Shown here: piece by piece, positions 8,593 through 37,724 of the stretch
Layout of the letters: each line of letters begins with the position of its first letter
Position numbering within the stretch: position 1 is the first letter of the stretch
Source: Patescibacteria group bacterium
GTDB taxonomy: Bacteria; Patescibacteriota; Patescibacteriia; UBA1558; UBA10009
Direction: 5' to 3'
Assembly: GCA_018817315.1 (NCBI GenBank)
Contig: JAHITV010000002.1
Coordinates: 1-56,540, forward strand
DNA length: 56,540 nucleotides
The notes under the pieces: model-generated
Seen by the model: only the letters and a program-made list of their open reading frames with translations
Databases searched by the model: none
What the model was told of the DNA's origin: nothing
Position numbers and translations under genes: made by a program

Positions 8593-8979
8593 TTAACTTG
8601 GAACAGGCAATCCAATTTTTTGTAAAGGTAAATAATTAAAGTAATAGTAACAACCATCTATAGAAATTATATAATCTAATACATCTTTATATTCTGGTTT
8701 TTTAAACCAATCGTTTAAAATATAGATATATTTCACTTCAACATTTAATTGAGATAATAATTTTCTATATTGTTTAATTTTAAAATCACATGTTTGTAGT
8801 TTTTCATCAGTTGAACCGCTAACTTCCTGAAATTTTATCTCCAAAATGAAAAATGTATTGTTAACAATAACAAATATCGCATCATCTGGTAAAACTCTTT
8901 TAGAAATTAACTTTGTATAATCAATACCTTTATTTTTAAGATATTTATAAAGACTATACTTTTTGAAAAGAATCGCCAC
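8593..8979 (-). CDS. small PD-(D/E)xK-like nuclease candidate
   Basis: 128 aa with a GTG start preceded by GGAGA. The LPDD...(14 aa)...LEIKF arrangement resembles a PD-(D/E)xK catalytic core. Extremely AT-rich. Confidence 0.4.
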   Translation of the reverse strand: MAILFKKYSLYKYLKNKGIDYTKLISKRVLPDDAIFVIVNNTFFILEIKFQEVSGSTDEKLQTCDFKIKQYRKLLSQLNVEVKYIYILNDWFKKPEYKDVLDYIISIDGCYYYFNYLPLQKIGLPVPS

Positions 8980-9013
8980 TTTATCTCCATTGTAAAAAAT
9001 TGTGTTTTTATTC

Positions 9014-9166
9014 TTAGTCTGTTATAACAACATTCTTTTTACTTGGATATTTTTCTGAAAAAACAGGATTAATCACAGGAATATTATCAGCCATTATAAC
9101 TTTTGCATCATCTCCATATTTTTTCGCTATTCTTTCTAATTTTTCAATGAATTCTTTTAGCTTCAT
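9014..9166 (-). CDS. unannotated 50-aa ORF (MKLKEFIEKLERIAKKYGDDAKVIMADN...)
   Basis: Hand-translated and below the track's size cutoff. Its ATG overlaps the TGA of the upstream ORF (ATGA at 9163-9166), suggesting translational coupling. Confidence 0.3.
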   Translation of the reverse strand: MKLKEFIEKLERIAKKYGDDAKVIMADNIPVINPVFSEKYPSKKNVVITD

Positions 9167-9894
9167 TTTTTAAAATTAAAATTAGTTTCTAATTTATATA
9201 CTTCAAAACTTTTTGTATGCCAGTTGGATAAACTTTCGTAGTCAATAAAATTAACCCTGCTTTTAACAGACTGAAACGCACTTAATTTTAATTTGTCACC
9301 ATATTCTCTTCTTCTGGCAATATCAGCCACAATATAAAATTTTGTATAAAAATCTTGCAATTGAACAAACTTGCCAAGAGAATTTTTAATATCTGTTGAG
9401 TGTTCTATCTCAAAAAAATTAGATGGCATTTTTCTTTCATTAAACCAAACAACATCGATTGTTATCGCATTTCTTAATAAATCTTTATAGGTAAAATTAT
9501 AAAACTTTTTAACAGTTGTTATCTCTGATAAATTTTTTTCTAAATATTTTTTATTTTTATCTTGATATGGAACAAATGTTTCTTGTTTTTTAAGATTGCC
9601 TATTTCTACAAGTAATCCTTGGTAGTATGAATGATTAAACTCTTCTTGTTTTGTCTTAGAAATTTTCTCTACTGGTAAAATATTTTCAGGTAATTTATCT
9701 TTATAAGTTTTTAAAGCCCAGAGTCCCGGTCTTATTTTAAAGAAAAATCTGTTATCTTGAACGATACGTCTAATACTTGCAAATGGCGTTTTTGTTTTCC
9801 AGTCGGAAATATCAACATTTTGGTTTAGAAAACCAAGTGTCGCAAAACCACCTCTTTCTTTCATTGTTTTTATAACTGCTTCATGTTGCTTCAT
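9163..9894 (-). CDS. winged-helix plus nuclease-like domain protein (candidate restriction/defence nuclease)
   Basis: 243 aa. The N-terminus looks like a wHTH (HEAVIKTMKERGGFATLGFL...IRPGLWAL). The C-terminus has IDVVW...(11 aa)...FEIEHSTD, reminiscent of an endonuclease-fold core. Family not identified. Confidence 0.4.
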   Translation of the reverse strand: MKQHEAVIKTMKERGGFATLGFLNQNVDISDWKTKTPFASIRRIVQDNRFFFKIRPGLWALKTYKDKLPENILPVEKISKTKQEEFNHSYYQGLLVEIGNLKKQETFVPYQDKNKKYLEKNLSEITTVKKFYNFTYKDLLRNAITIDVVWFNERKMPSNFFEIEHSTDIKNSLGKFVQLQDFYTKFYIVADIARRREYGDKLKLSAFQSVKSRVNFIDYESLSNWHTKSFEVYKLETNFNFKK

Positions 9895-9914
9895 ATTTTT
9901 TAAAATTAAACGAA

Positions 9915-10163
9915 TTAAAACTCAAAATCCTTTTCTATGCCTCTGCTTTTATCCCAATCACCTTTATTAACAGAAACTCTTCTGCCAGAATGAACAGAAA
10001 ATCCCCCATTTGAAAGGTTATAAGGTGGATCAGCAAAAATCATATCAATTGACTCTGATTTAACTCGTTTAATTACTTTAAAAATATCACCAAAATAAAG
10101 GTTAAATTTGCGCTGCTTGTCTTGAAAATAAGCTTTTTGTTTATCTTCCATCGGAAATTTCAT
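9915..10163 (-). pseudogene. truncated DNA methyltransferase (N-terminal fragment, beta-class N6A/N4C type)
   Basis: 82 aa containing IFADPPYNLSNGGFSVHSGRRVSVNKGDWDKS (motif IV DPPY). It ends at TAA 9915 before any AdoMet-binding FxGxG region, and no continuation appears in any frame downstream. Confidence 0.7.
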
Positions 10164-10190
10164 AGTTAAAATTTAACATTTCTAGGGTAA

Positions 10191-10220
10191 AAAATCAACA
10201 AAAACAGGGTCTAAACCCTG
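10191..10220 (-). terminator. intrinsic terminator after the helicase-nuclease gene
   Basis: Minus strand reads CAGGGT TTAG ACCCTG followed by TTTTGTTGATTTT. Confidence 0.5.
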
Positions 10221-10261
10221 TATGTTACTTACTTTACTCAATTATATAATAAAAGGCAAGA

Positions 10262-13222
10262 TCAAATAATATTTTTACAATAATCGCATTTTTGGTGATT
10301 ATTGACAAAATGACTGAAATCAAAGTCTTTAATCTTTTCTATAGTCTTAATAATTTTCTCCTGAAACTTGGCTATTTCCTTTTCTTCGCCCAAGAAAGAA
10401 AGTTGACTGTCGTCTTCCAAATAGTAATAAATCAATTCTTTAACTTTTTGAGAAAATAATGATTCCACTGCTATTTGATAAAGCAATAATTGCTCTTTGT
10501 CTTCTCCGGTTAACTTTTCTTTAGCACCGCCGGTTTTATAATCAATTATTTTAAAACTGTCCTCTACTTCATCAAGGCGATCTATTTTACCCGTTAAAAC
10601 ATAACCTTTAATTTTAATATTAAAGGACTTTTCCAAATAACTAGGAAAAGATTCTAATAACTTGGGACTGTTGTAAAAACTCTTTAAAATTTCCTTACCT
10701 TGTTCATAATATTTATTCTTCTGAACTTTATCCTGATACCAATCATCAATCCAGGATTCTTCGTAAAATTTAATTAACTGATTCAAGCTAACAGAATCAC
10801 GAATAGACTTTTTGCTACTTTTTGATTTTTGACTTCCTGACTTCTTACTTTGACTAAATAAATCCGTTTGCACGCTTTGCTGCTGACGTTTAAATTCCTC
10901 ATAAAACTTTTGCAAAGTTAAATGAATAGTTGAACCAAAACTAAAATAATGATTGCCTTTTAAAGGAACTTTTAAAATATAACGATAATAATAAAGACGA
11001 GGACAATGTTCAAAATCTTTAAGTTGGGTAAAAGAAAATTTTGCCGGCAATAAAGTTTTGAATTCATTATTTTCCTTGATTTCCAGCTTTTTAATATTTT
11101 CCAGTTTTTCTTCTTGAACAGTTTTCTTTGTTTTTTTACTGGTTTGCGCTGACTTAAAGCCCAAATCAGTTAGAAAAACAGAAGCTTTTTTTTCTTTCAC
11201 TCCCCCATAATTTTTAGCTGAAGCAAAGAAAATACCGTCTTTTGATCTGGTCATGCCTACATAAAACAAACGACGTTCCTCCTGTAAATAAATATCGCCT
11301 TCTGGTATGATTTCTTTAACTAATTCATCTGGTAATTGGATTGGTTCCTTTCTTTCAATAGTAGGAAAACGTTTATCCACCATGTTAACCATAAAAACAT
11401 ATTTAAACTCTAAGCCCTTAGCACTATGCACTGTCATAATTTTTACCATTTCCGGACCTTCATCTTCATTAAGAGGCTGCAAAGCTCCTTGCTCGCCTGA
11501 TTCCAACTCTAAACCTAATTGCCTTAAAAAATTCTTCACTGATTTATCATCATTAATTTCTTCAAAAGCTTTGATACGTCTATAAAATTGTGATAAATAA
11601 GAAAACTGCCAACGTTTTTCCAACTCCTCCAAAGAATCAATATATTTTAAATAACCAGAGTCATTTAAAAAATCAAAAACAATTTTGCTGCATCTTTCGC
11701 TTTTGGTGTGATTAATAAATTTTTCCAAAAAGTCCACAATCCTTTCCAGTTCTGTAAGAGTTTCTGGCTTAAGTTTTAATAAATATCTGGCCTGTTTAAC
11801 GATTTCAAATAAGGTAAAGGATTTTTTATATGCCTGATGCGTTAATTTAACTATTTCCACAGCTTCAAGATTAAAAATGGGCAGACTTAAAAAGCGGTAC
11901 ATGGCATCTGATTCATGATAATTATCTAAAAGTTTTAAAAAAGCAATTAAATTTAAAACTATGGGTTTGGCATATAAACCGCGGCTAGCTACAAACTGAT
12001 AAGGAATACCGGCTTTTTCTAAGCCTTCAATAAAAGGTCTGGCTTGATCATTAGCTCTAACTAAAATAGCAAAATTATTCCAAAGAATATCAGCTTCTTT
12101 TTGTTTAAGGAAAATTATTTTATTTACCACTGCCGCCACTTCCTCATCCAAAGTTGGAACTGTTAAATGTTCTATCATTCCCTTGCCTTTAGCAGCGGCT
12201 TTTAATTCTTTGGAAATCTTTTCTTCTGCTTTTAATTTTATTTCCAAACGATTAGGATTGTTTAACTGAATAAAAGAATAAGCCAAATCCAGAATATTTT
12301 GTTTAGAACGATAATTAGTGTTTAAAAAGACTTCCACGCATTTGGCATAATCCTTTTTAAATTCCAAAATATTGCTGATAGAAGCACCGCGGAATTTGTA
12401 AATTGCCTGGTCATCATCTCCTACTACAGTGATGTTATTTTTGGGCTTGGCCAATAATTTTACTAAACAATACTGGGCATAATTAGTGTCCTGAAATTCA
12501 TCAACTAAAATATACTGGAATTGATTTTGGTATTTTTTTAAAATCTGCGGCCGTTTATTAAAAAGATCCCAGACATAATTGATTAAGTCGCCAAAATCCA
12601 AATAATTGTTATCCAATAATAATTGCTGATAAACATGGTAGGCATTGGCAACTTCTTCCAGTCTCCTGACTTCCAGAGCCGCTTCTTCATCTTTTCTTAA
12701 ATCATTATCTAATCTATATGATTCCACATAATTTAAATAATCTTGCGGCCGGACTAATTCGTCCTTGCATCTGGAAAAATGCTTTAACAAAGCATGAATA
12801 AATCTATTGGGATTGCCTAAAGGTTTATAATAATCCAAAGCAAATTTATCTAAATTATTTCTTGCCAAAAGCCAGCTTTGAGTTTCGTCCAACAGTTTAA
12901 AATCAGTGGTCAGGCCAATATCCAGTCCATGCTCCTTTAAAATTCTTTCGGCAAAACTATGAAAAGTGGAAATCCATAAGTCAACATAGCCGTAGGGCAA
13001 TGCCTTATCAACTCTTTCTTCCATTTCGGCTGCTGCTTTTTCGGTAAAAGTCAAAGCTAAAATTTGCTCGGGATTTAATTTTTTTTCAGTAATCAGCCAG
13101 TTGATTCTTTCGGTTATAACTGTGGTTTTGCCAGTGCCTGCTCCGGCAATAATTAACAAGGGGCCATTGCCGAATTTTACGGCCTTTTTTTGGGCAGGAT
13201 TTAATTTATCTGCATAGCTCAT
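10262..13222 (-). CDS. UvrD/PcrA-type superfamily 1 helicase fused to a C-terminal PD-(D/E)xK (AddB/Cas4-like) nuclease domain
   Basis: 986 aa with Walker A GAGTGKT, DEFQDT, and helicase motifs through VGMTRSK. The C-terminal roughly 260 aa carry FEHCPRLYYY ... DRLD ... IIDYKTG ... CDYC. Confidence 0.85.
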   Translation of the reverse strand: MSYADKLNPAQKKAVKFGNGPLLIIAGAGTGKTTVITERINWLITEKKLNPEQILALTFTEKAAAEMEERVDKALPYGYVDLWISTFHSFAERILKEHGLDIGLTTDFKLLDETQSWLLARNNLDKFALDYYKPLGNPNRFIHALLKHFSRCKDELVRPQDYLNYVESYRLDNDLRKDEEAALEVRRLEEVANAYHVYQQLLLDNNYLDFGDLINYVWDLFNKRPQILKKYQNQFQYILVDEFQDTNYAQYCLVKLLAKPKNNITVVGDDDQAIYKFRGASISNILEFKKDYAKCVEVFLNTNYRSKQNILDLAYSFIQLNNPNRLEIKLKAEEKISKELKAAAKGKGMIEHLTVPTLDEEVAAVVNKIIFLKQKEADILWNNFAILVRANDQARPFIEGLEKAGIPYQFVASRGLYAKPIVLNLIAFLKLLDNYHESDAMYRFLSLPIFNLEAVEIVKLTHQAYKKSFTLFEIVKQARYLLKLKPETLTELERIVDFLEKFINHTKSERCSKIVFDFLNDSGYLKYIDSLEELEKRWQFSYLSQFYRRIKAFEEINDDKSVKNFLRQLGLELESGEQGALQPLNEDEGPEMVKIMTVHSAKGLEFKYVFMVNMVDKRFPTIERKEPIQLPDELVKEIIPEGDIYLQEERRLFYVGMTRSKDGIFFASAKNYGGVKEKKASVFLTDLGFKSAQTSKKTKKTVQEEKLENIKKLEIKENNEFKTLLPAKFSFTQLKDFEHCPRLYYYRYILKVPLKGNHYFSFGSTIHLTLQKFYEEFKRQQQSVQTDLFSQSKKSGSQKSKSSKKSIRDSVSLNQLIKFYEESWIDDWYQDKVQKNKYYEQGKEILKSFYNSPKLLESFPSYLEKSFNIKIKGYVLTGKIDRLDEVEDSFKIIDYKTGGAKEKLTGEDKEQLLLYQIAVESLFSQKVKELIYYYLEDDSQLSFLGEEKEIAKFQEKIIKTIEKIKDFDFSHFVNNHQKCDYCKNII

Positions 13223-13261
13223 GAGCTTATTTTAGCATAATCATTATATAATCGTAAGTAC

Positions 13262-13289
13262 TTGACTTTTAAAAAAGATGTTTTATAAT
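13262..13289 (+). promoter_or_regulatory. sigma70-type promoter of the orphan RNA locus
   Basis: TTGACT (13262-13267), a 16-nt spacer, then TATAAT (13284-13289). Confidence 0.55.
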
Positions 13290-13295
13290 GGAGAT

Positions 13296-13767
13296 ATTAA
13301 GGTCGGTTGTTTGTCTTAAAATCACGAAGGATGATAGCTGGGCAGCTTGACAAATAACCGACCGGTTCTTTTCATTATTTTTAGTTAGCCGCATGCTCTT
13401 TTTTAGCAACCGGTCATTTGTCTTCAGAAAGGAAGGTCGTGTGGGTAATTTAGACTTATGACCGGTCTGCCCCTTTTATGATTTTGGTCAGCCGCACACT
13501 CTTTGACAATGAAGTTAAGAGGATATATTGTCCCTTCCGACTTTATAGTGCATGGCTGGCCACCTTTTTTGACCGGCGGCTGTTATTCTTTGAAACGCTT
13601 TACTTACTTGCTCGCTCTGACCAAGGAATACAGCCAAGCCGGTCAATCTTTTTTCGTTCTTCGCCCTCACATCTCCCACCATGCTCTGGATGATGGATTT
13701 ATACCACCTCCAGGCAGACACCCTGACGCTGATTGTTCCCCTGTGATCAGTATTGGGTGTTTTTTTA
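13296..13767 (+). ncRNA. structured non-coding RNA of unidentified class (three tandem hairpin modules)
   Basis: A G+C-elevated gap between two minus-strand genes, with only overlapping nonsense ORFs on both strands. Bounded by a promoter and a terminator. Long hairpins lie at 13301-13363, 13409-13466 and 13571-13644. A conserved tail YAGCCGCAYRCTCTTT occurs at 13385-13402 and 13487-13504. The 5' end is estimated from the -10 box. Confidence 0.5.
13718..13767 (+). terminator. intrinsic terminator ending the RNA locus
   Basis: ACACCC...CTGAT...ATCAG...GGGTGT hairpin (13718-13760) followed by a T-run at 13760-13766. Confidence 0.6.
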
Positions 13768-13784
13768 TTTTAAATTTTTATATA

Positions 13785-13809
13785 TAAAAAAGACGTTTAG
13801 CTTACGCCT
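13785..13809 (-). terminator. intrinsic terminator after atpC (end of the atp operon)
   Basis: Minus strand reads AGGCGT AAGCTAA ACGTCT followed by TTTTTT. Confidence 0.45.
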
Positions 13810-13836
13810 CACGCCTTATGTATTAGTTGACTTTGT

Positions 13837-14283
13837 TTACTCTTTATTCATCTGTGGCGGATTTCTAAATTTGCGATATTTGCGAACTATTTTTAAACGA
13901 GCTAGTTCTTTTTCCATTTTAACAGCCAGTGCTGTATAATCTACTGCTTCTGTGGCAATCTGTTCTTTTCTAGATAACAATTCTTCTGCTTTTTTTCTAG
14001 CTGCCTCTGCTCTGGCTTCATCAATTTCTTCAACTCTTTCTGCGGTGTCTGCCAAGATAGTTAAATTATTACTAGAAATTTCCACAAAACCACCAGAAAT
14101 AACCATTGGTATTTCCTCTTTTTCTTTTTTAATTAAAACCTCACCAGCATTAAGTGAACTCACTAAAGGAATATGGTTTGGCAAAACAGTAATTTCACCA
14201 CTGGTCGTTGGTAAAGTAATTTGGTCCACTTCGTCTTCGTAAACCACGCGTTCGGGAGTGACGATTTTAAATTTGATTTTCAT
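13837..14283 (-). CDS. atpC: F1 ATP synthase epsilon subunit
   Basis: MKIKFKIVTPERVVYEDEV...TLPTTSGEITVLPNHIPLVS is typical of epsilon. Start set to ATG 14283; an alternative is ATG 14298, and the track start is GTG 14307. Confidence 0.85.
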   Translation of the reverse strand: MKIKFKIVTPERVVYEDEVDQITLPTTSGEITVLPNHIPLVSSLNAGEVLIKKEKEEIPMVISGGFVEISSNNLTILADTAERVEEIDEARAEAARKKAEELLSRKEQIATEAVDYTALAVKMEKELARLKIVRKYRKFRNPPQMNKE

Positions 14284-14304
14284 AGATTCATGTATCATAT
14301 TATT

Positions 14305-14355
14305 CACGACTCACGTATCAATTTTTTGTCTATTTTGATACGTGATACGTGAAAC
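14305..14355. repeat. heptamer units forming a hairpin between the four-helix-bundle gene and atpC
   Basis: Units cacgact, cacgtat ... gatacgt, gatacgt. TCACGTATCA (14311-14320) pairs with TGATACGTGA (14336-14345). Confidence 0.55.
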
Positions 14356-14703
14356 TTATTTATATTGTATTGTCTTCCAAAGCATTGCTCCAATTTCATC
14401 TGCTTGCTTGGCTAAAATTTTATAATTATTATCTTTGATATATCCTTCATCATGAGAAAAACTGATTAAATATTCTGATTCTTTTAATGAAGCATAACTT
14501 ATTCTCAAAAAATTCTTATTAACCCTAACACCTTGCCTGGCAAACCCTTCTATATAATTTAGTATTACCGACAAAGATGAGCGACGGAATTGACTCGTAA
14601 CTCCGTATAATTCATCTTTAGGAAAGGTCTTGGTTACTTTATATACATTATGAACATAAAGATTCATTTTTTTCTTGAGCTCGCCGTGAAATCGCTTTTC
14701 CAT
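14356..14703 (-). CDS. four-helix-bundle protein (family formerly called 23S rRNA intervening-sequence protein, PF05635-like)
   Basis: 115 aa from ATG 14703 (MEKRFHGELKKKMNLYVHNVYKVTKTFPKDELYGVTSQFRRSSLSVILNYIEGF...), with the size and motif pattern typical of that family. The upstream part of track ORF 14356..14817 runs through a repeat array and was trimmed. Confidence 0.75.
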   Translation of the reverse strand: MEKRFHGELKKKMNLYVHNVYKVTKTFPKDELYGVTSQFRRSSLSVILNYIEGFARQGVRVNKNFLRISYASLKESEYLISFSHDEGYIKDNNYKILAKQADEIGAMLWKTIQYK

Positions 14704-14726
14704 GTTATTTTGATTAATGATAAATG

Positions 14727-14761
14727 TCGTATATCGTGATTCGTTATTCGTATATCGTATC
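14727..14761. repeat. heptamer array (tcgtata, tcgtgat, tcgttat, tcgtata, tcgtatc)
   Basis: Five exact-period-7 units directly upstream of the four-helix-bundle gene. Confidence 0.6.
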
Positions 14762-14855
14762 ATGTTCTCAATTTGTGGGCTAACATCCCCTGGATTGCCG
14801 AAGTTGGAAGCGAACAAGGAATTTGGGCGGAGCTAGTAAATAAATATTTTATAAC

Positions 14856-15392
14856 TTATGGCAATTCTACAGGTTCGTTTTCTTTAAATTCTTTAGTTAT
14901 TATTAATCCATTATGACTATACTTTATACTAAGTGTTTTAACAACACCCTTATCGGGATCACCGGTAATTTCATTTGAAGCCACCGTTTTTAACTTGTCA
15001 TCTCTTATTTGTTTATTCAGCTCATCGGTTACATTAAAATTTTTTGCCGGTGAGCCGTATTTTGCTTCCAATATTTTAAGTCTAGTATCATCATAACTTT
15101 CTTTTAGAACAGATTTTGTGTCACCAGAGCCAATAATTTCTTTTATCGTTGGTTTCTTAAAATAACTAAAGAATATAAAAACACCGAAACATATTATACC
15201 TAATATTAACAAGTATAAATTCTCTGGTTTTGCTGCATAAAATCCGATTAAACCCGTTGCAATGAAAAGGAATATTTCTCCAGTTACTTTATTACTTCTA
15301 ATATTATTTAAATCATTTTCACTAACTAGAAAATATGTTTCGGTACGTCCTTTTATTTTTGTTTTAACCAATTTGTCATTTAAATTAGTCAT
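14856..15392 (-). CDS. two-TM membrane protein with a DUF3395-like C-terminal domain
   Basis: 178 aa with two hydrophobic helices (about residues 40-80). The C-terminus LKILEAKYGSPAKNFNVTDELNKQI...ITGDPDKGVVKTLSIKYSHNG resembles the DnaJ-associated DUF3395 fold, recalled from memory. Confidence 0.5.
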   Translation of the reverse strand: MTNLNDKLVKTKIKGRTETYFLVSENDLNNIRSNKVTGEIFLFIATGLIGFYAAKPENLYLLILGIICFGVFIFFSYFKKPTIKEIIGSGDTKSVLKESYDDTRLKILEAKYGSPAKNFNVTDELNKQIRDDKLKTVASNEITGDPDKGVVKTLSIKYSHNGLIITKEFKENEPVELP

Positions 15393-15467
15393 ATGGTTAT
15401 AAAAATATTTATCTTACTTCCTGCGGAGCCAGTACGCGGTGATATGTGAAGTCCTGTTTTTCTTCTA

Positions 15468-15932
15468 TTATTTTAAGTTATACTTTTTTATTAACTCTTC
15501 CATCATTTGTAAAAAAGGTTCTGGAGATGGAGCATCACCACCTTTGATAAAAATACCTCTTTCAATAGCTTTATCAAATAAATTCACCACATATTCTGTA
15601 TCCTTCATAGTGCTTGAGCCAAGCATTTGATTTGCTTGAATAAACACTCTTAAGGCATCAGTGATGGGTCTTTTTAATTCAGGATGTTTAGTACCTAAAT
15701 TTTTGATTTCCTCAGCCACTATTTTTTTATTTTCACTAAATGTTTTTTGACTCTCTGGATTATGACATCCAAAAATTTCATTAATTATTGAAGTAGCTAA
15801 TGTTTTATAGAATTTTTCTCCCTTTTCTTTATACTTTTCTGCAAAGTCTTCTGTAAGCACTTTATATAGTACAAGTTTAACAACGTCAACTCCTTGGATC
15901 ATTTTTTGAGCTAGTCTTTTTATACCAAACAT
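15468..15932 (-). CDS. hypothetical alpha-helical protein
   Basis: 154-aa ORF with an ATG start and no motif I recognise. Third gene of the block inserted between atpD and atpC. Confidence 0.45.
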   Translation of the reverse strand: MFGIKRLAQKMIQGVDVVKLVLYKVLTEDFAEKYKEKGEKFYKTLATSIINEIFGCHNPESQKTFSENKKIVAEEIKNLGTKHPELKRPITDALRVFIQANQMLGSSTMKDTEYVVNLFDKAIERGIFIKGGDAPSPEPFLQMMEELIKKYNLK

Positions 15933-20893: not shown

Positions 20894-20997
20894 GTATCAG
20901 TAATTAGTAATCGGTAATCAGTAACTAGTAATCAGAGAAAAATCCCCCCAATTACCAATTACCGATTACTAATTACTAGTTACTCAATTATCAATTA
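20894..20997. repeat. two inverted heptamer arrays containing a perfect 20-bp inverted repeat
   Basis: Left array is six units taatYRg (20894-20935). Right array is seven units Yaattac/cgattac (20949-20997). AGTAATTAGTAATCGGTAAT (20899-20918) is exactly complementary to ATTACCGATTACTAATTACT (20958-20977). Confidence 0.65.
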
Positions 20998-33784: not shown

Positions 33785-34162
33785 ATGACTCAAAGTGATT
33801 CTACCCAAGCTTTACCAGCGCCAGATGGAACGGGAAAAACGCGAAAAGCAAGGCAAAAAATTATTAATATGCTGGCTAAAACAATTTGTGATAAGTTGTT
33901 AACAGGCGGTACTGGCAGTGATGTTCTGCATTTTATTGAAAAAATTTTGGAATATGTAAAAAGCTTCCCGCCCCCGCTCCTGCCATCATTAAGCGCTTGG
34001 GAACAACAAGAAACTCAAAAGGGTCCTACTTCGTCACCTAAATACTTTTATATAATAATGGTGACAAATGGATTTGCTGAAAAAGATATTAAGATGTTTG
34101 TCAGACTTGTCAGACTTCATACCACACTACTTATGAAAAAGCGAGCAACGCTGGGTACTTAA
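33785..34162 (+). CDS. hypothetical protein (125 aa)
   Basis: ATG preceded by AGGAGGAG (33769-33776) and followed by a terminator hairpin. No recognisable domain. Confidence 0.45.
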   Translation: MTQSDSTQALPAPDGTGKTRKARQKIINMLAKTICDKLLTGGTGSDVLHFIEKILEYVKSFPPPLLPSLSAWEQQETQKGPTSSPKYFYIIMVTNGFAEKDIKMFVRLVRLHTTLLMKKRATLGT

Positions 34163-34163
34163 T

Positions 34164-34207
34164 CCACCTATATAAATCTGAATACATTAATGTATAGGTG
34201 GATTTTG
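34164..34207 (+). terminator. intrinsic terminator, island unit 1
   Basis: CCACCTATA (34164-34172) pairs with TATAGGTGG (34193-34201), followed by ATTTT. Confidence 0.55.
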
Positions 34208-34268
34208 ACTTTGGATCAAGATTTGATTTAGTTTTATTGTCAACCCAGTCCCGAGCTTGTCGAGGGGG

Positions 34269-34297
34269 TTGACAAAACATTAAATTTAATTTATTAT
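34269..34297 (+). promoter_or_regulatory. sigma70-type promoter, island unit 2
   Basis: TTGACA (34269-34274), a 17-nt spacer, then TATTAT (34292-34297). The -35 box lies in the 3' arm of the inverted repeat TTGTCAACCC (34237-34246) / GGGTTGACAA (34266-34275). Confidence 0.6.
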
Positions 34298-34384
34298 ATG
34301 ACATTATCCAATCTGATCTTTTCACTTGTAAATAAAAAATTTGAGATAAAACAAGATTAACGGAAAAAAGCAGGAGATTTGAAA

Positions 34385-35443
34385 ATGAATGTACTCCTTG
34401 TAGCAAACATGGTGGCTTCAAAACAAGCGTTTGAAATGCTCAAAAAAGAGTTAGAAAAACGCGGCCATCAAGTCTTCCCGTTCCTTAGTGCAGGAAAGCT
34501 GGAGGAAACTCTAGTTACAGATATCGCCCCGATAATAGCGAACAGTAATCTTATTGTACTTGGGATGTCATCTGACGAAAACTTGGCCCAACAAGAGCTA
34601 GGTATCGCAAAAATTGCCAAAGAAAATAATACACCTTACTGTTTCTATGGCGATACTTACAGCTCATGCGCACGTCCGCATCTCCAGCAAGCTCTTGAAA
34701 AAGCCGGCACCCTCTTTGTTATCAACGGAGAGGAAGCTGAAAAGGCAAGTATGGTCTTCCCGCAGCTCAAGGTGGTGGTATCCGGAAATCCCACCTGGGA
34801 AGAATTCTGCTTCCCTAAATTCACTCCGAAACTAATCCGGCATTCACTCTCCATTGCCGAGGACGAAATAGTTATTCTGGTTCCTTTTGGGAAGATGTTT
34901 GATATCAACCGACTGCACCTCAACGGAGTAATCCAAGCCGTTGATCTCGCCGGTGGACAAACACCTAATGGCAAAAAAATTCGGATTATTGCCAGTTCTC
35001 ATCCAGGCGATCCTGTTGAACCAGAAAAATATTGCGGATTAGTGGAACCTCATCAGTTTACCAGGATTATACCCAGCGCCTTGGCACCGACGTTGGGCTT
35101 ACTGCCTGGTGTAGACCTGGTAATAGGATCTGCTTCAACCGTAGGCGTTGCCGCCGCACATCAAGGTATTTCAGTAATTGATTTTCTTACTAAAAAAGCA
35201 CTGGATCGCCTTGAGCAAAGCACCGGCCAAAGAACTTGGGCGCCTTGCAACCTGGGAGCTTCCTGCATGGTTACTGAATCAGAATCAGAAAGAGAATTAA
35301 TGAAAGCAATCCTGGCCCTCCTTAAGGATCCTACGTCAATGCGCGAGCGGCAGAAAGCTGTTTATCCTGCCCCAACTAAGATCGGTGCAGCCGTCGAAAT
35401 TATGGCTGACACCATTAAACAGCTCGCTCAAGAAATCACCTAA
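34385..35443 (+). CDS. uncharacterised two-Rossmann-lobe (GT-B glycosyltransferase/epimerase-like) protein, paralog A
   Basis: Start moved to ATG 34385, 8 nt after AGGAG (track start is TTG 34379). An alternating beta-alpha pattern and the motifs VVSGNPTWEEF and IGSASTVGVAAAHQGISVI resemble GT-B/2-epimerase-like folds. Function unassigned. Confidence 0.6.
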   Translation: MNVLLVANMVASKQAFEMLKKELEKRGHQVFPFLSAGKLEETLVTDIAPIIANSNLIVLGMSSDENLAQQELGIAKIAKENNTPYCFYGDTYSSCARPHLQQALEKAGTLFVINGEEAEKASMVFPQLKVVVSGNPTWEEFCFPKFTPKLIRHSLSIAEDEIVILVPFGKMFDINRLHLNGVIQAVDLAGGQTPNGKKIRIIASSHPGDPVEPEKYCGLVEPHQFTRIIPSALAPTLGLLPGVDLVIGSASTVGVAAAHQGISVIDFLTKKALDRLEQSTGQRTWAPCNLGASCMVTESESERELMKAILALLKDPTSMRERQKAVYPAPTKIGAAVEIMADTIKQLAQEIT

Positions 35444-35473
35444 CTATCACTTCATTCACAAAATCTCAACATA

Positions 35474-35504
35474 GGGATTGGCAACGTGCCGATCCCTTTT
35501 TTTT
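35474..35504 (+). terminator. intrinsic terminator, island unit 2
   Basis: GGGATTGGCA-ACG-TGCCGATCCC (10-bp stem including one G-U pair) followed by T8. Confidence 0.7.
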
Positions 35505-35532
35505 ATTGTCAAGCCCTTTGTGAAAGGCTTGC

Positions 35533-35561
35533 TTGACAAAACATTAAATTTGATTTATGAT
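35533..35561 (+). promoter_or_regulatory. sigma70-type promoter, island unit 3
   Basis: TTGACA (35533-35538), a 17-nt spacer, then TATGAT (35556-35561). The -35 through spacer (TTGACAAAACATTAAATTTRATT) is nearly identical to unit 2. An inverted TTGTCAAGC lies upstream at 35506-35514. Confidence 0.6.
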
Positions 35562-35644
35562 GCAGTATAATTTAATTGCTCATTTTGTTATAAATTCCGA
35601 AGAATTCTGACAATAAACCAAACCGACGAAAGCAGAGGTGACAC

Positions 35645-36655
35645 ATGAACTTATTATTTGCAGGTTTTGATTTGGCAGCAGCCAAAAACCTAATCATGGT
35701 GGCTCAAGCTGCCCAAATAAAAAACCATCAGGTAACATTCATCGGTAACCAATTAATGTCCAGATTCATTATTGGCGACAAACCTGATGCTATTATCACT
35801 GGTCTAGCTTCGTTTAAAACCGAAAACGAACTAATCTTCGCTACCATGGCCAGAGATTCCAAGATTCCTCACTTGGTCATTGCCGAAACACATTTTTCCT
35901 GGGCCCGTCCCAAAGCCGAGGGTCTGATGACGCACGCGATTTGCGCTGTAGCTTCGCCAGCCGAAATCGCGGAAGCTAAAAAATGGGGTTACAGCGATGC
36001 CGTCTATCTAGGTGGTCCTCCGCTCTGGCAAGCTTTTAGAAGATTAAAGCCAGCCCAACTGGTCATTCCAGAAGATACCAAAGTCATCCTGGTCGGTGGC
36101 ATCAAAGACGCCAGACTGACCGACATGATGCTGGCCGAGGTAGCCAAATCCATAAAGGCTTTGGCTGCTACTCATGGCATCAAGTTGCAGCTGATCTTTC
36201 GGCCGCATCCCAATGAACCAGCGGAAACTTATAACGAAGCTCGACGGAAAGGAATACTGGAAGGAGTTGAACCTTTACCTTCTGATGCTCCGACAGACAA
36301 CTTGATTTCAGAGGTAGACGTTTCAATCTTTACTTCCGGAGCCATGGGAACGATTATAGCCCCGATCCTGCGAAAACCATCTATCTACTACGAAGATGAC
36401 TGGGTCTGCAAGCGCATGGTTAGTCAGATCGGTCGCAAGGACTGGCTACCAGCTGAAGAAGGAGCTTTGATCAAAGCCACGCCCGAGACTTTGACTGCTG
36501 AGCTGGAATGGATGCTCAAGCTCAAAGAAAAAGAATTATCCGAACACCACGAACAATTATCTGCTTGCCAAGCCGGCGTCTATCCTGATCCTAAGCCCCT
36601 ATCTTCACCTGAGGAAGAGATCCTTTTCTTCATCGAGAAAACTTGGCAAAACTGA
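35645..36655 (+). CDS. uncharacterised two-Rossmann-lobe (GT-B-like) protein, paralog B
   Basis: 336 aa with ATG 6 nt after GAGG. Same length class and domain order as paralog A (for example LGGPPLWQAF versus VSGNPTWEEF). Distant paralogy judged by eye. Confidence 0.6.
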   Translation: MNLLFAGFDLAAAKNLIMVAQAAQIKNHQVTFIGNQLMSRFIIGDKPDAIITGLASFKTENELIFATMARDSKIPHLVIAETHFSWARPKAEGLMTHAICAVASPAEIAEAKKWGYSDAVYLGGPPLWQAFRRLKPAQLVIPEDTKVILVGGIKDARLTDMMLAEVAKSIKALAATHGIKLQLIFRPHPNEPAETYNEARRKGILEGVEPLPSDAPTDNLISEVDVSIFTSGAMGTIIAPILRKPSIYYEDDWVCKRMVSQIGRKDWLPAEEGALIKATPETLTAELEWMLKLKEKELSEHHEQLSACQAGVYPDPKPLSSPEEEILFFIEKTWQN

Positions 36656-36687
36656 TCATTCGGAATCCATTACGAAATCTCACCATA

Positions 36688-36717
36688 GGGATTGGCAACA
36701 TGCCGATCCCTTTTTTT
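36688..36717 (+). terminator. intrinsic terminator, island unit 3
   Basis: GGGATTGGCA-ACA-TGCCGATCCC followed by T7. Differs from the unit 2 terminator by a single base. Confidence 0.7.
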
Positions 36718-36719
36718 AT

Positions 36720-36748
36720 TTGACATAATAAATTTCACCTTCTATAAT
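36720..36748 (+). promoter_or_regulatory. sigma70-type promoter, island unit 4
   Basis: TTGACA (36720-36725), a 17-nt spacer, then TATAAT (36743-36748). Confidence 0.6.
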
Positions 36749-36794
36749 AACTTATTAATTCAAATCTGATCATTTCAAAAAAGAAAGGGGAAAC

Positions 36795-37724
36795 ATGAAA
36801 GCCCTTTGTTCTGTACTCATCTTTCTGTTCTTGTCCATTAGCGGTTTTACTCAAGTGACAGAAATGAATTGCGGCGATACTGCCACAGGGAATTTTGGTC
36901 AATCCGGAAATGAATATCTTTTTGGCTTTGAGAATCATTATCAAAGCCAATTGAACATCATACTTATCTGTGAGCAATCACATCTTGATCTCTTTTCCCG
37001 GCTACCTGAGTTACCTTGGCCATCAGACACTTGTTGGCTTGCCGAAGGATACGGGCAAATTGATATTGCCTCTCTTCCCAAAGGCACCTATTATATCCGG
37101 GCAACAGGAATTGGTCCATTTCAAATGCGACTTTATTGTGAGGAGTATCAACTTCCTGTTGAGCTAACCGTTTTTGAAGCAACCGCAGGCAATGGACAAG
37201 TGACACTACACTGGCAAACAGCCAGTGAGAAGGACAATGACTGCTTTGAATTGCAACGCCAAACAGAAAACAGCCAATGGATAACCATTGCAGAAATTCC
37301 CGGCAGCGGCAACAGCCAAACAACTATCAACTATGAGTATATTGATCAGGCAGTTGTTAATGGTGTGACCTACGTTTATTGTCTACTGTCACGCGACTTA
37401 AACGGCACTATCCATGATTACGGACAAACAGCAGAAGCTACACCTCTAACGCCGATACCAACAGAGTATGCGCTTCACCAAAACTTCCCTAACCCCTTTA
37501 ATCCGCAAACAAGTATTTCGTATGCCTTGACGGAAACGGGGTTCGTGACTTTAAAAGTTTACAATGTCATGGGTCAGGAAGTGGCAAATTTGGTAGATGG
37601 CCAAATGGAAAGTGGCCATCATACAACGACGTTTGACGGCAAAAATCTGCCAGCCGGCATTTACTTTTACACACTGAAAGTGGCTAATTTCACCAGCACC
37701 AAAAAAATGCTGCTGGTAAAATAA
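36795..37724 (+). CDS. secreted protein with a T9SS type A C-terminal sorting domain
   Basis: 309 aa with signal peptide MKALCSVLIFLFLSISGFTQ. A middle module (LTVFEATAGNGQVTLHWQTASEKDNDCFELQR) is typical of FCB-group cell-surface proteins. The C-terminus LHQNFPNPFNPQTSISYAL...GIYFYTLKV...KKMLLVK matches the Por/T9SS CTD pattern. Confidence 0.75.
   Translation: MKALCSVLIFLFLSISGFTQVTEMNCGDTATGNFGQSGNEYLFGFENHYQSQLNIILICEQSHLDLFSRLPELPWPSDTCWLAEGYGQIDIASLPKGTYYIRATGIGPFQMRLYCEEYQLPVELTVFEATAGNGQVTLHWQTASEKDNDCFELQRQTENSQWITIAEIPGSGNSQTTINYEYIDQAVVNGVTYVYCLLSRDLNGTIHDYGQTAEATPLTPIPTEYALHQNFPNPFNPQTSISYALTETGFVTLKVYNVMGQEVANLVDGQMESGHHTTTFDGKNLPAGIYFYTLKVANFTSTKKMLLVK

Follow-up and report, generated by a model that had tools for sequence, protein, structure and literature searches.

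A candidate plus-strand hairpin-array RNA gene between a helicase gene and atpC in a Patescibacteria genome

What occupies the 614-nucleotide (nt) gap at positions 13223-13836 of contig JAHITV010000002.1, a 56.5-kb contig of Patescibacteria (Parcubacteria-type)? The gap lies between the start, at 13222, of a gene for a 986-amino-acid (aa) helicase of PcrA/UvrD type with a C-terminal Cas4-like PD-(D/E)XK nuclease (10262-13222, minus strand) and the stop, at 13837, of atpC (13837-14307, minus strand), which closes the F-type ATP synthase operon. Throughout, "the window" means the whole contig of 56,540 nt, in which the minus strand holds nearly all genes and the overall guanine-plus-cytosine (GC) content is about 33%. 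An initial annotation, made from the sequence alone, had described the gap as GC-elevated and as the site of a structured RNA. Its coordinates and its raised GC both agree with our analysis: the GC content of 13300-13700 is 0.435-0.455, against 0.28-0.36 for the flanks, and values of 0.40-0.49 are also reached by some coding stretches elsewhere in the window. We favor, at about even odds, the reading that the gap is an independent plus-strand non-coding RNA gene, the lineage-specific version of a fast-evolving hairpin-array locus. The case is made by promoter and terminator motifs, a strong fold with a strand bias, a module duplication with compensatory changes, the lack of a coding signal, and the recurrence of such a unit at the same position in relatives.

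The two ends of the unit are marked by recognizable signals, both of them where the initial annotation had placed them. On the plus strand, a sigma-70-type promoter, TTGACT-16-TATAAT (13262-13289), scores 11/12 and would start transcription near 13296. When both strands of the window were scanned (113 kb), only six sites reached at least 11/12, and each of the five others is found 70-110 nt upstream of a real gene and on the strand of that gene; thus, an 11/12 match is a good predictor of a real promoter in this genome. At the far end, a hairpin (13718-13760) followed by a run of seven T residues (13760-13766) forms an intrinsic terminator (13718-13767), the hairpin being visible in the folds and the T-run read directly. 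The terminator hairpin is more stable on the plus strand than on the minus (-16.0 versus -11.1 kcal/mol), and is absent from the list of a simple terminator scan because of an internal loop in its stem. That scan places the intrinsic terminator of the atp operon on the minus strand at about 13780-13810, convergent with that of the unit. Back to back with the unit's promoter is the promoter region of the helicase gene (13229-13272, minus strand), which contains a scan match, TTAAAA-18-TATAAT (13272 to 13243), and an extended -10 element read directly from the sequence, TGCTAAAAT (13237 to 13229). As this element ends only 6 nt ahead of the helicase ATG, the helicase messenger RNA is probably leaderless. 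In two relatives' loci, L001 and L167, the equivalent helicase promoter, TTGCCA-17-TAAAAT, directly abuts the ATG. Judged on motifs, then, the unit has its own promoter, its own intrinsic terminator and no coding capacity, the features by which a non-coding RNA gene is generally recognized.

Between these ends, the plus strand is filled by a string of hairpins. The arms of three of them, A, B and C, were recovered by repeat search and by folding at the positions originally assigned. Hairpin A (13301-13363) pairs 13301-13315 with 13349-13363 through 15 base pairs (bp), one of them G·U (93% complementary), around a 33-nt loop containing two small sub-hairpins and AAGGAUGAU; its energy is -27.2 kcal/mol on the plus strand and -23.8 on the minus. 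Linker A (13364-13408) consists of a U-rich tract and then a box, UUAGCCGCAUGCUCUUU, which is the first copy of a 23-nt direct repeat. Hairpin B (13409-13466), a paralogue of A, pairs 13409-13423 with 13452-13466 (87% complementary), with 13 of 15 positions paired, two U·U mismatches, and a 28-nt loop containing AAGGAAGG. It leads into linker B (13467-13484), which is C-rich and then U-rich (CUGCCCCUUUUAUGAUUU). The next hairpin, B' (13485-13562), had been overlooked: the second copy of the repeat box (GGUCAGCCGCACACU) forms its 5' arm, five of its pairs are G·U, and a U6 run follows it (13565-13570). No other part of the locus discriminates between the strands as strongly as B', at -31.0 kcal/mol for the plus strand and -22.3 for the minus. 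Hairpin C (about 13570-13645) has roughly 22 bp, an AA bulge and a 29-nt loop, and is likewise followed by a U6 run (13649-13654). A mostly unpaired C-rich stretch (13655-13717; CCCUCAC, CUCCCACC and CCACCUCC) with a weak hairpin, D, then extends to the terminator hairpin, T. The C-rich motifs number four, versus 2.1 expected from shuffles, which is not a significant excess (P=0.17). Altogether, hairpins with U6-7 runs occur at three sites in succession, and the U-tracts after hairpins A and B are interrupted and lie 5-8 nt from the stem.

The locus is the most strongly folded part of the window among those compared. Relative to dinucleotide shuffles, the plus strand has a fold z-score of -5.3 to -5.6 and the minus strand one of -4.1 to -4.7, and the locus ranks first among 49 segments of 475 nt, the 48 controls having a mean of -0.6, a standard deviation of 1.5 and a minimum of -4.7. 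Two of the control segments, 10100-10574 (plus strand, z -4.2) and 34100-34574 (plus strand, z -4.7), are also unusually structured, and both include intergenic spacers. Several features of the locus point to the plus strand as the favored one: the promoter; the U-runs behind the hairpins, which are found on the plus strand only; the total fold energy (-150.2 versus -135.7 kcal/mol); the number of G·U pairs (17 versus 8); and the stability of hairpins A, B' and T, which gain 3.4, 8.7 and 4.9 kcal/mol, respectively, on the plus strand. Hairpin D, by contrast, is more stable on the minus strand.

Part of the array is internally repetitive. The direct repeat (13379-13401 and 13482-13504) has 83% identity at a spacing of 103 nt, and modules A (13299-13402) and B (13406-13505) can be aligned over their full length of about 100 nt, with 62 identical columns. 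Module C has only the TGACCGG stem core and the U-tract in common with A and B. Thus, of the tandem triplication proposed initially, the duplication of a module of about 105 nt, from A to B, is real, but C is not shown to be a third copy. In the 16-pair stem shared by A and B, nine pairs are invariant, three show double compensatory changes (G-C to A-U once and U-A to C-G twice) that keep Watson-Crick pairing, one goes from G·U to A-U, and three cells are unpaired, while controls in which the register was slid gave 0-1 double changes. The pattern is suggestive of pairing maintained through double substitutions. A pseudoknot between the loop of B and a downstream segment had also been proposed. 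This finds no support: the complementarity amounts to 6 nt (GGAAGG/CCTTCC), and CCCUUCC pairs inside hairpin B' in the minimum-energy fold.

If the gap is a gene, one would like to see it again in relatives. A helicase-anchored scan of 185,579 species genomes yielded 80 loci and an atpC-anchored metagenome scan 80 more; with the nearest relatives added by protein look-ups, 1.07 Mb of relatives' DNA was collected. About 18 of the 80 genome loci retain the gene order atpD-atpC-gap-helicase. Six lineages are nearest to one another and about equidistant (the window, L170, L001, L002, L003 and L004), with 74-85% identity in the helicase N-terminus and 82-85% in AtpD; L170, L171, L167 and L088 are identical and so represent one organism assembled four times. 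In L170, the order is atpD-atpC, 644 nt with no called gene, and helicase. Within those 644 nt are a divergent promoter of TG-extended type, a series of GC-rich hairpins, each with a UUUUC-type linker behind it, and a U7 terminator; the strand that corresponds to the window's plus strand has a fold z-score of -7.2 and its complement one of -3.2. L001 has the same layout in a gap of 793-809 nt (depending on the atpC end used), with z-scores of -9.1 and -7.3, respectively. In all three lineages (window, L170 and L001) the energy and the G·U counts favor the plus-equivalent strand, and the units, 420-720 nt long, have a GC content of 43-50% and z-scores between -5 and -9.

The sequence within these units tells a different story. 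The alignment of L170 with L001 covers the promoter and reaches, weakly, into the first ~130 nt (local score 44, versus a shuffle maximum of 38), and the window aligns with L001 only at the end formed by the unit and atpC terminators, marginally so (35 versus 34). The only k-mers common to all three are the terminator T-run and CTCTGAC, shared 6- and 7-mers being no more frequent than in shuffles, and the hairpins of L170 and L001 are of irregular sizes. An all-versus-all comparison of the helicase-upstream regions of the relatives returned coding matches only. Among the closest atpC relatives (77-79% identity), the downstream region of L172 is unrelated to the locus, and the L082 and L083 contigs stop just past atpC. 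Thus, on checking the helicase-atpC synteny, as the initial annotation had suggested, an analogous unit was found in matching position and orientation in two relatives, but its interior could not be aligned: the address, orientation and architecture of the unit recur while its interior is not conserved. Very fast divergence of a single ancestral RNA gene and repeated replacement in a hot-spot would both fit this pattern.

Other relatives carry something else in the gap. It holds a 523-aa antiporter-like gene in L002 and L003 and a gene of about 144 aa, whose product has an HWDCGGYGGS motif, in L004, L005, L019 and L067; in L080 it is only 162 nt long. The initial annotation had noted that an intact protein gene here in relatives would make the locus a pseudogene relic. 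Such genes do exist, but their products show no similarity to the DNA of the locus, which is thus not a pseudogene of them: when ten such proteins were compared with the window by tblastn, only chance matches resulted (E >= 0.8). The sole match touching the gap, to a 258-aa gene of L079 (13784-13858, E=0.88), covers the terminator and the end of atpC, outside the RNA body (13296-13767).

The survey of relatives also turned up three features that we record separately. In L169 (69% helicase identity), at 1650-2137 of the locus on the minus strand, the helicase gene has upstream of it a divergent 11/12 promoter of the TG-extended type, TTGACA-17-TATTAT, and behind this promoter come about 230 nt of GC-rich hairpins and a terminator; an open frame may begin at the predicted transcription start. 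L170 (4219-4244) and L001 (3950-3996) have a perfect GC-rich hairpin, CCCCGCC...GGCGGGG, between the divergent promoters; in L001, this hairpin and the -35 box of the helicase promoter overlap. No such hairpin is present in the window. Finally, in another Parcubacteria lineage (L074, L123 and L129), a tandem duplication of about 195 nt (67-72% identity) occupies 126-320 and 420-614 nt upstream of the helicase gene.

The most serious competitor to an RNA gene, which we consider doubtful but well worth weighing, is that the RNA is a by-product. Function would then reside in the two divergent promoters, with that of the unit either competing with the leaderless helicase promoter or coupled to it by supercoiling, or the DNA would be a decaying insertion in a variable hot-spot; the stack of hairpins and U-tracts would stop antisense transcription from running into the atp operon, and the interior would drift. 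Much of the comparative evidence suits this explanation, since the promoter and terminator ends are all that aligns when the window, L170 and L001 are compared, equally close relatives have different contents in this variable hot-spot, and no loop motif is enriched. The three successive hairpin-U6-7 sites would suit it too, yet a single terminator would suffice. Moreover, drift at 33% GC should erase long GC-rich hairpins, whereas three lineages keep them over several hundred nucleotides, and stems A and B appear to have stayed paired through three double substitutions with no canonical terminator U-runs behind them.

A second possibility is that the structure belongs to the minus strand, as a long 5' leader of the helicase messenger RNA or a 3' untranslated region of the atp operon, regulating the helicase in cis. 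Both flanking genes are indeed on this strand, its fold is significant, and it is the strand that hairpin D prefers. However, the atp terminator (13810-13790) precedes the region, and the helicase promoter motifs directly adjoin the ATG in the window, L001 and L167, so that the hairpins are not a helicase leader. The best minus-strand promoter upstream of the hairpins scores 9/12, which is not a good match, and the U-runs, the energies and the G·U counts all favor the plus strand, the last two in L170 and L001 as well. We regard a minus-strand element as improbable.

Could the gap instead encode a small orphan protein, or several? It does contain open frames of 46-94 codons, including a 71-aa open reading frame (ORF; 13478-13693) and a 92/94-aa ORF (13503/13509-13787), the 92-aa version of which was called by a gene caller and stored as P0245. 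Yet none of the ORFs in the gap has a Pfam match, not one of 5.8 billion protein clusters has a word in common with the 71-aa ORF, and the 94-aa ORF matches only its own prediction among 1.84 billion protein representatives. Neither has a Shine-Dalgarno sequence, the ORFs of the locus that are preceded by one being only 12-16 codons long and none of them common to relatives, and the 94-aa frame passes straight through the terminator hairpin and T-run. No frame is conserved with L170 or L001, and tblastx between the gaps of the window, L170 and L001 was negative. These results agree with the original view of the gap as non-coding and make a protein-coding explanation very unlikely.

An array of guide RNAs, with its effector encoded elsewhere in the genome, deserves consideration on account of the TIGR-Tas systems. 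TIGR stem-loop arrays are known from candidate phyla radiation (CPR) bacteria and consist of tandem hairpins with variable palindromic stems and loops of ~30 nt, ending in a rho-independent terminator (Faure et al., 2025; PMC12045711). The characterized stem-loop array has 13 units and dual-repeat arrays have 5-15; the loops hold two short spacers, each flanked by box C/D-like motifs in a pattern that occurs twice per loop, and a Tas (Nop-domain) gene is adjacent (PMC12045711). Our locus likewise comes from CPR/Patescibacteria and has tandem hairpins, loops of compatible size (28-33 nt), a terminal terminator and a rapid turnover of sequence between relatives. It differs in having two or three irregular units, as irregular as the hairpins of L170 and L001, and in loops of 33 (A), 28 (B) and 29 nt (C) that lack common flanking or repeated box C/D-like motifs. 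The loops of A and B can be aligned as paralogues and are not variable spacers set between conserved boxes, and C has no loop motif in common with them. The neighbors, moreover, are atpC and the PcrA/UvrD-Cas4-like helicase. A Pfam scan of the 36 larger ORFs of the contig (positions 80-40330) found ordinary housekeeping genes (gyrB, pheST, the atp operon, rmuC, metG, a proS-like gene and glmS) and no reverse transcriptase, transposase, Cas or Nop/Tas gene, although a divergent TasA could escape Pfam. PADLOC and NCBIfam searches with the six proteins flanking the locus gave nothing relevant, and PDB sequence searches with its unassigned neighbor proteins were negative. With no Tas gene among the ORFs scanned and no box motifs, we reject a TIGR-Tas array, and grant an orphan guide array of any kind as little credence as a small protein.

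The claim that the locus matches no known RNA family also held up. With permissive filters, Rfam 15 gave only noise on either strand (13.9-18.9 bits, versus thresholds of 39-100, with E values of 2-10); at gathering thresholds, there were no matches in the whole window, in L001, in L170 or in 14 relatives' loci, and ARAGORN found neither a tRNA nor a transfer-messenger RNA (tmRNA). A divergent housekeeping RNA missed by the models (RNase P RNA, tmRNA, signal recognition particle RNA, 6S RNA or the remnant of a group I or II intron) is thus the least probable explanation of all, for although CPR RNAs can diverge, and the size and GC enrichment of the locus are typical of housekeeping RNAs in AT-rich genomes, its hairpins are serial and independent, without the long-range helices of those families, and its absence from equally close relatives would not be allowed for an essential RNA. 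A group II intron remnant was rejected separately, there being no domain V and no Rfam match. We also rejected a replication origin or iterons, as the cumulative GC skew is monotonic through the locus, and a dispersed repeat of the repetitive extragenic palindrome or miniature inverted-repeat transposable element type, of which there is no second copy in the window and none in the 1.07 Mb of relatives' loci. Phage and plasmid collections contained no match to the locus, and a search of IMG/VR for the module signature GACCGGT-N15-30-AGCCGCAYRCTC gave three chance matches in high-GC phage coding DNA.

Among characterized RNAs, three groups besides the TIGR arrays come closest to the locus. First, the sponge RNAs CsrB, RsmY and RsmZ are stand-alone genes with their own promoter and intrinsic terminator, and have duplicated hairpin modules, variable in number and length, with poor sequence conservation and with numerous GGA or ANGGA motifs, mainly in the loops. 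Our locus is likewise a promoter-to-terminator string of hairpins with a duplicated module and a poorly conserved sequence. However, its stems of 15-22 bp are much longer than Csr/Rsm hairpins, GGA is not enriched (6 observed versus 6.6 expected), no Rfam model matches it, those of these families included, and no CsrA domain was found among the 36 ORFs scanned. Second, tandem sibling small RNAs such as LhrC1-4 and PrrF1/PrrF2 are modules of about 100 nt duplicated within one intergenic region, each with its own promoter and terminator. The locus resembles them in its tandem modules of ~100 nt, in C-rich single-stranded stretches that might pair with Shine-Dalgarno sequences, and in its hairpin and U-tract ends. 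It differs in that one strong promoter (13262) serves the whole array. In front of module B the promoter scan found nothing of at least 9/12, and a 10/12 site at 13503 falls inside hairpin B'. The interrupted U-tracts after A and B are a further difference, as is the absence of a conserved seed shared with relatives. Third, OLE, ROOL, GOLLD and raiA are large GC-rich intergenic non-coding RNAs of AT-rich bacteria, conserved in sequence, with complex multi-stem junctions and strong covariation, and all are in Rfam. A GC-elevated, highly structured element of several hundred nucleotides, in an AT-rich genome and with a function that cannot be deduced from context, is reminiscent of these RNAs, but the serial independent hairpins and the lack of detectable sequence conservation or an Rfam match set it apart. 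As a candidate the locus is new and unclassified, and the kind to which it would belong, the bacterial intergenic non-coding RNA gene, is a familiar one.

Several other features of the window lie near the locus or share properties with it. Three extra genes separate atpD from atpC (14356-15932, minus strand), encoding a 154-aa all-helical protein of no family, a 178-aa protein with two predicted membrane helices, and a 23S_rRNA_IVP/four-helix-bundle protein weakly similar to the Avd protein of diversity-generating retroelements; there is no reverse transcriptase nearby, and in L001-L004 and L170 atpC directly follows atpD. Between the stop codon of the IVP-like gene and the atpC start there is an inverted repeat (14303-14353) whose 19-nt arms are 89% complementary, and the atpE-atpF spacer contains a long hairpin (20899-20984) with 26-nt arms (92% complementary) and GTAATYR heptad repeats. 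Just downstream of the helicase gene is an apparently decayed restriction-modification system (8593-10162, minus strand), comprising a 79-codon N-terminal fragment of a DNA methyltransferase with a DPPY motif (9925-10162), a 243-aa protein with a match to a Type II restriction enzyme (PADLOC, 1.7e-7), and a 128-aa ORF similar, on visual inspection only, to a PD-(D/E)XK nuclease. A plus-strand island at 33785-37724, with 43-49% GC, contains three of the six best promoter matches of the window (34269, 35533 and 36720) and encodes three proteins without Pfam matches and one with a Por_Secre_tail/type IX secretion system sorting domain; the island may have come by horizontal transfer, or its genes may be expressed at a very high level.

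How might an RNA gene at this locus work? RNA polymerase would start near 13296, from the promoter that stands back to back with that of the helicase gene, and a transcript of about 470 nt would end at the hairpin-U7 terminator, head to head with the atp terminator. This RNA is predicted to fold into a chain of long hairpins, five to six in number (A, B, B', C, D and T) and independent of one another, with U-rich linkers between them, part of the array having presumably arisen by tandem duplication of the ~105-nt module, and the near-canonical hairpin-U6 sites after B' and C may give rise to shorter species of about 275 and 360 nt. Because the sequence changes freely while the structure, the GC content and the module duplication persist, such an RNA would be expected to act through its structure rather than a conserved sequence. 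Most likely, it would offer an RNA-binding protein or a ribonuclease several binding sites, as a decoy or a platform, or it would be a precursor cut into hairpin RNAs; a small RNA that pairs through a seed appears less likely.

Several observations weigh against the RNA-gene reading. Transcription of the unit, its transcript ends and its function are inferred, the first of them from motifs. Neither blastn nor nhmmer found DNA similarity to the gap in the 80 genome and 80 metagenome loci, nor did any of the 1.07 Mb gathered show it, and the unit must be dispensable, since equally close relatives (L002, L003, L004 and others) have protein genes in its place. The minus strand also folds well, as expected of any set of inverted repeats. 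The covariation between A and B, a comparison of two sequences with little power, was equaled in 59 of 500 shuffles. The loops show no enrichment of repeated motifs, GGA included. AAGGA does occur three times versus 0.33 expected (P=0.003), but this is a post hoc observation and two of the three are copies made by the A/B duplication. At present, the locus is a well-documented orphan candidate rather than a mechanism.

A more far-reaching version of the RNA-gene reading is a long shot. Parcubacteria of this clade may keep a rapidly diversifying hairpin-array RNA gene at a fixed address, next to the atp operon and the helicase gene, where only the architecture, with its strong divergent promoter, long GC-rich hairpins in series, U-rich linkers and terminator, is maintained, as part of an arms race or as a programmable guide or decoy served in trans, possibly by a Tas-like protein or by the neighboring helicase-nuclease. 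Such a gene would belong to an undescribed class of CPR non-coding RNA.

Almost nothing is known of the regulatory and structural RNAs of CPR/Patescibacteria. In such tiny genomes, 600 nt of GC-enriched, strongly promoted non-coding DNA is costly, so that the unit probably does something. If it is transcribed, it would be a candidate for a lineage-restricted class of RNA that evolves by module duplication and keeps its structure but not its sequence, a form of conservation that escapes comparative pipelines such as Rfam-style covariance searches.

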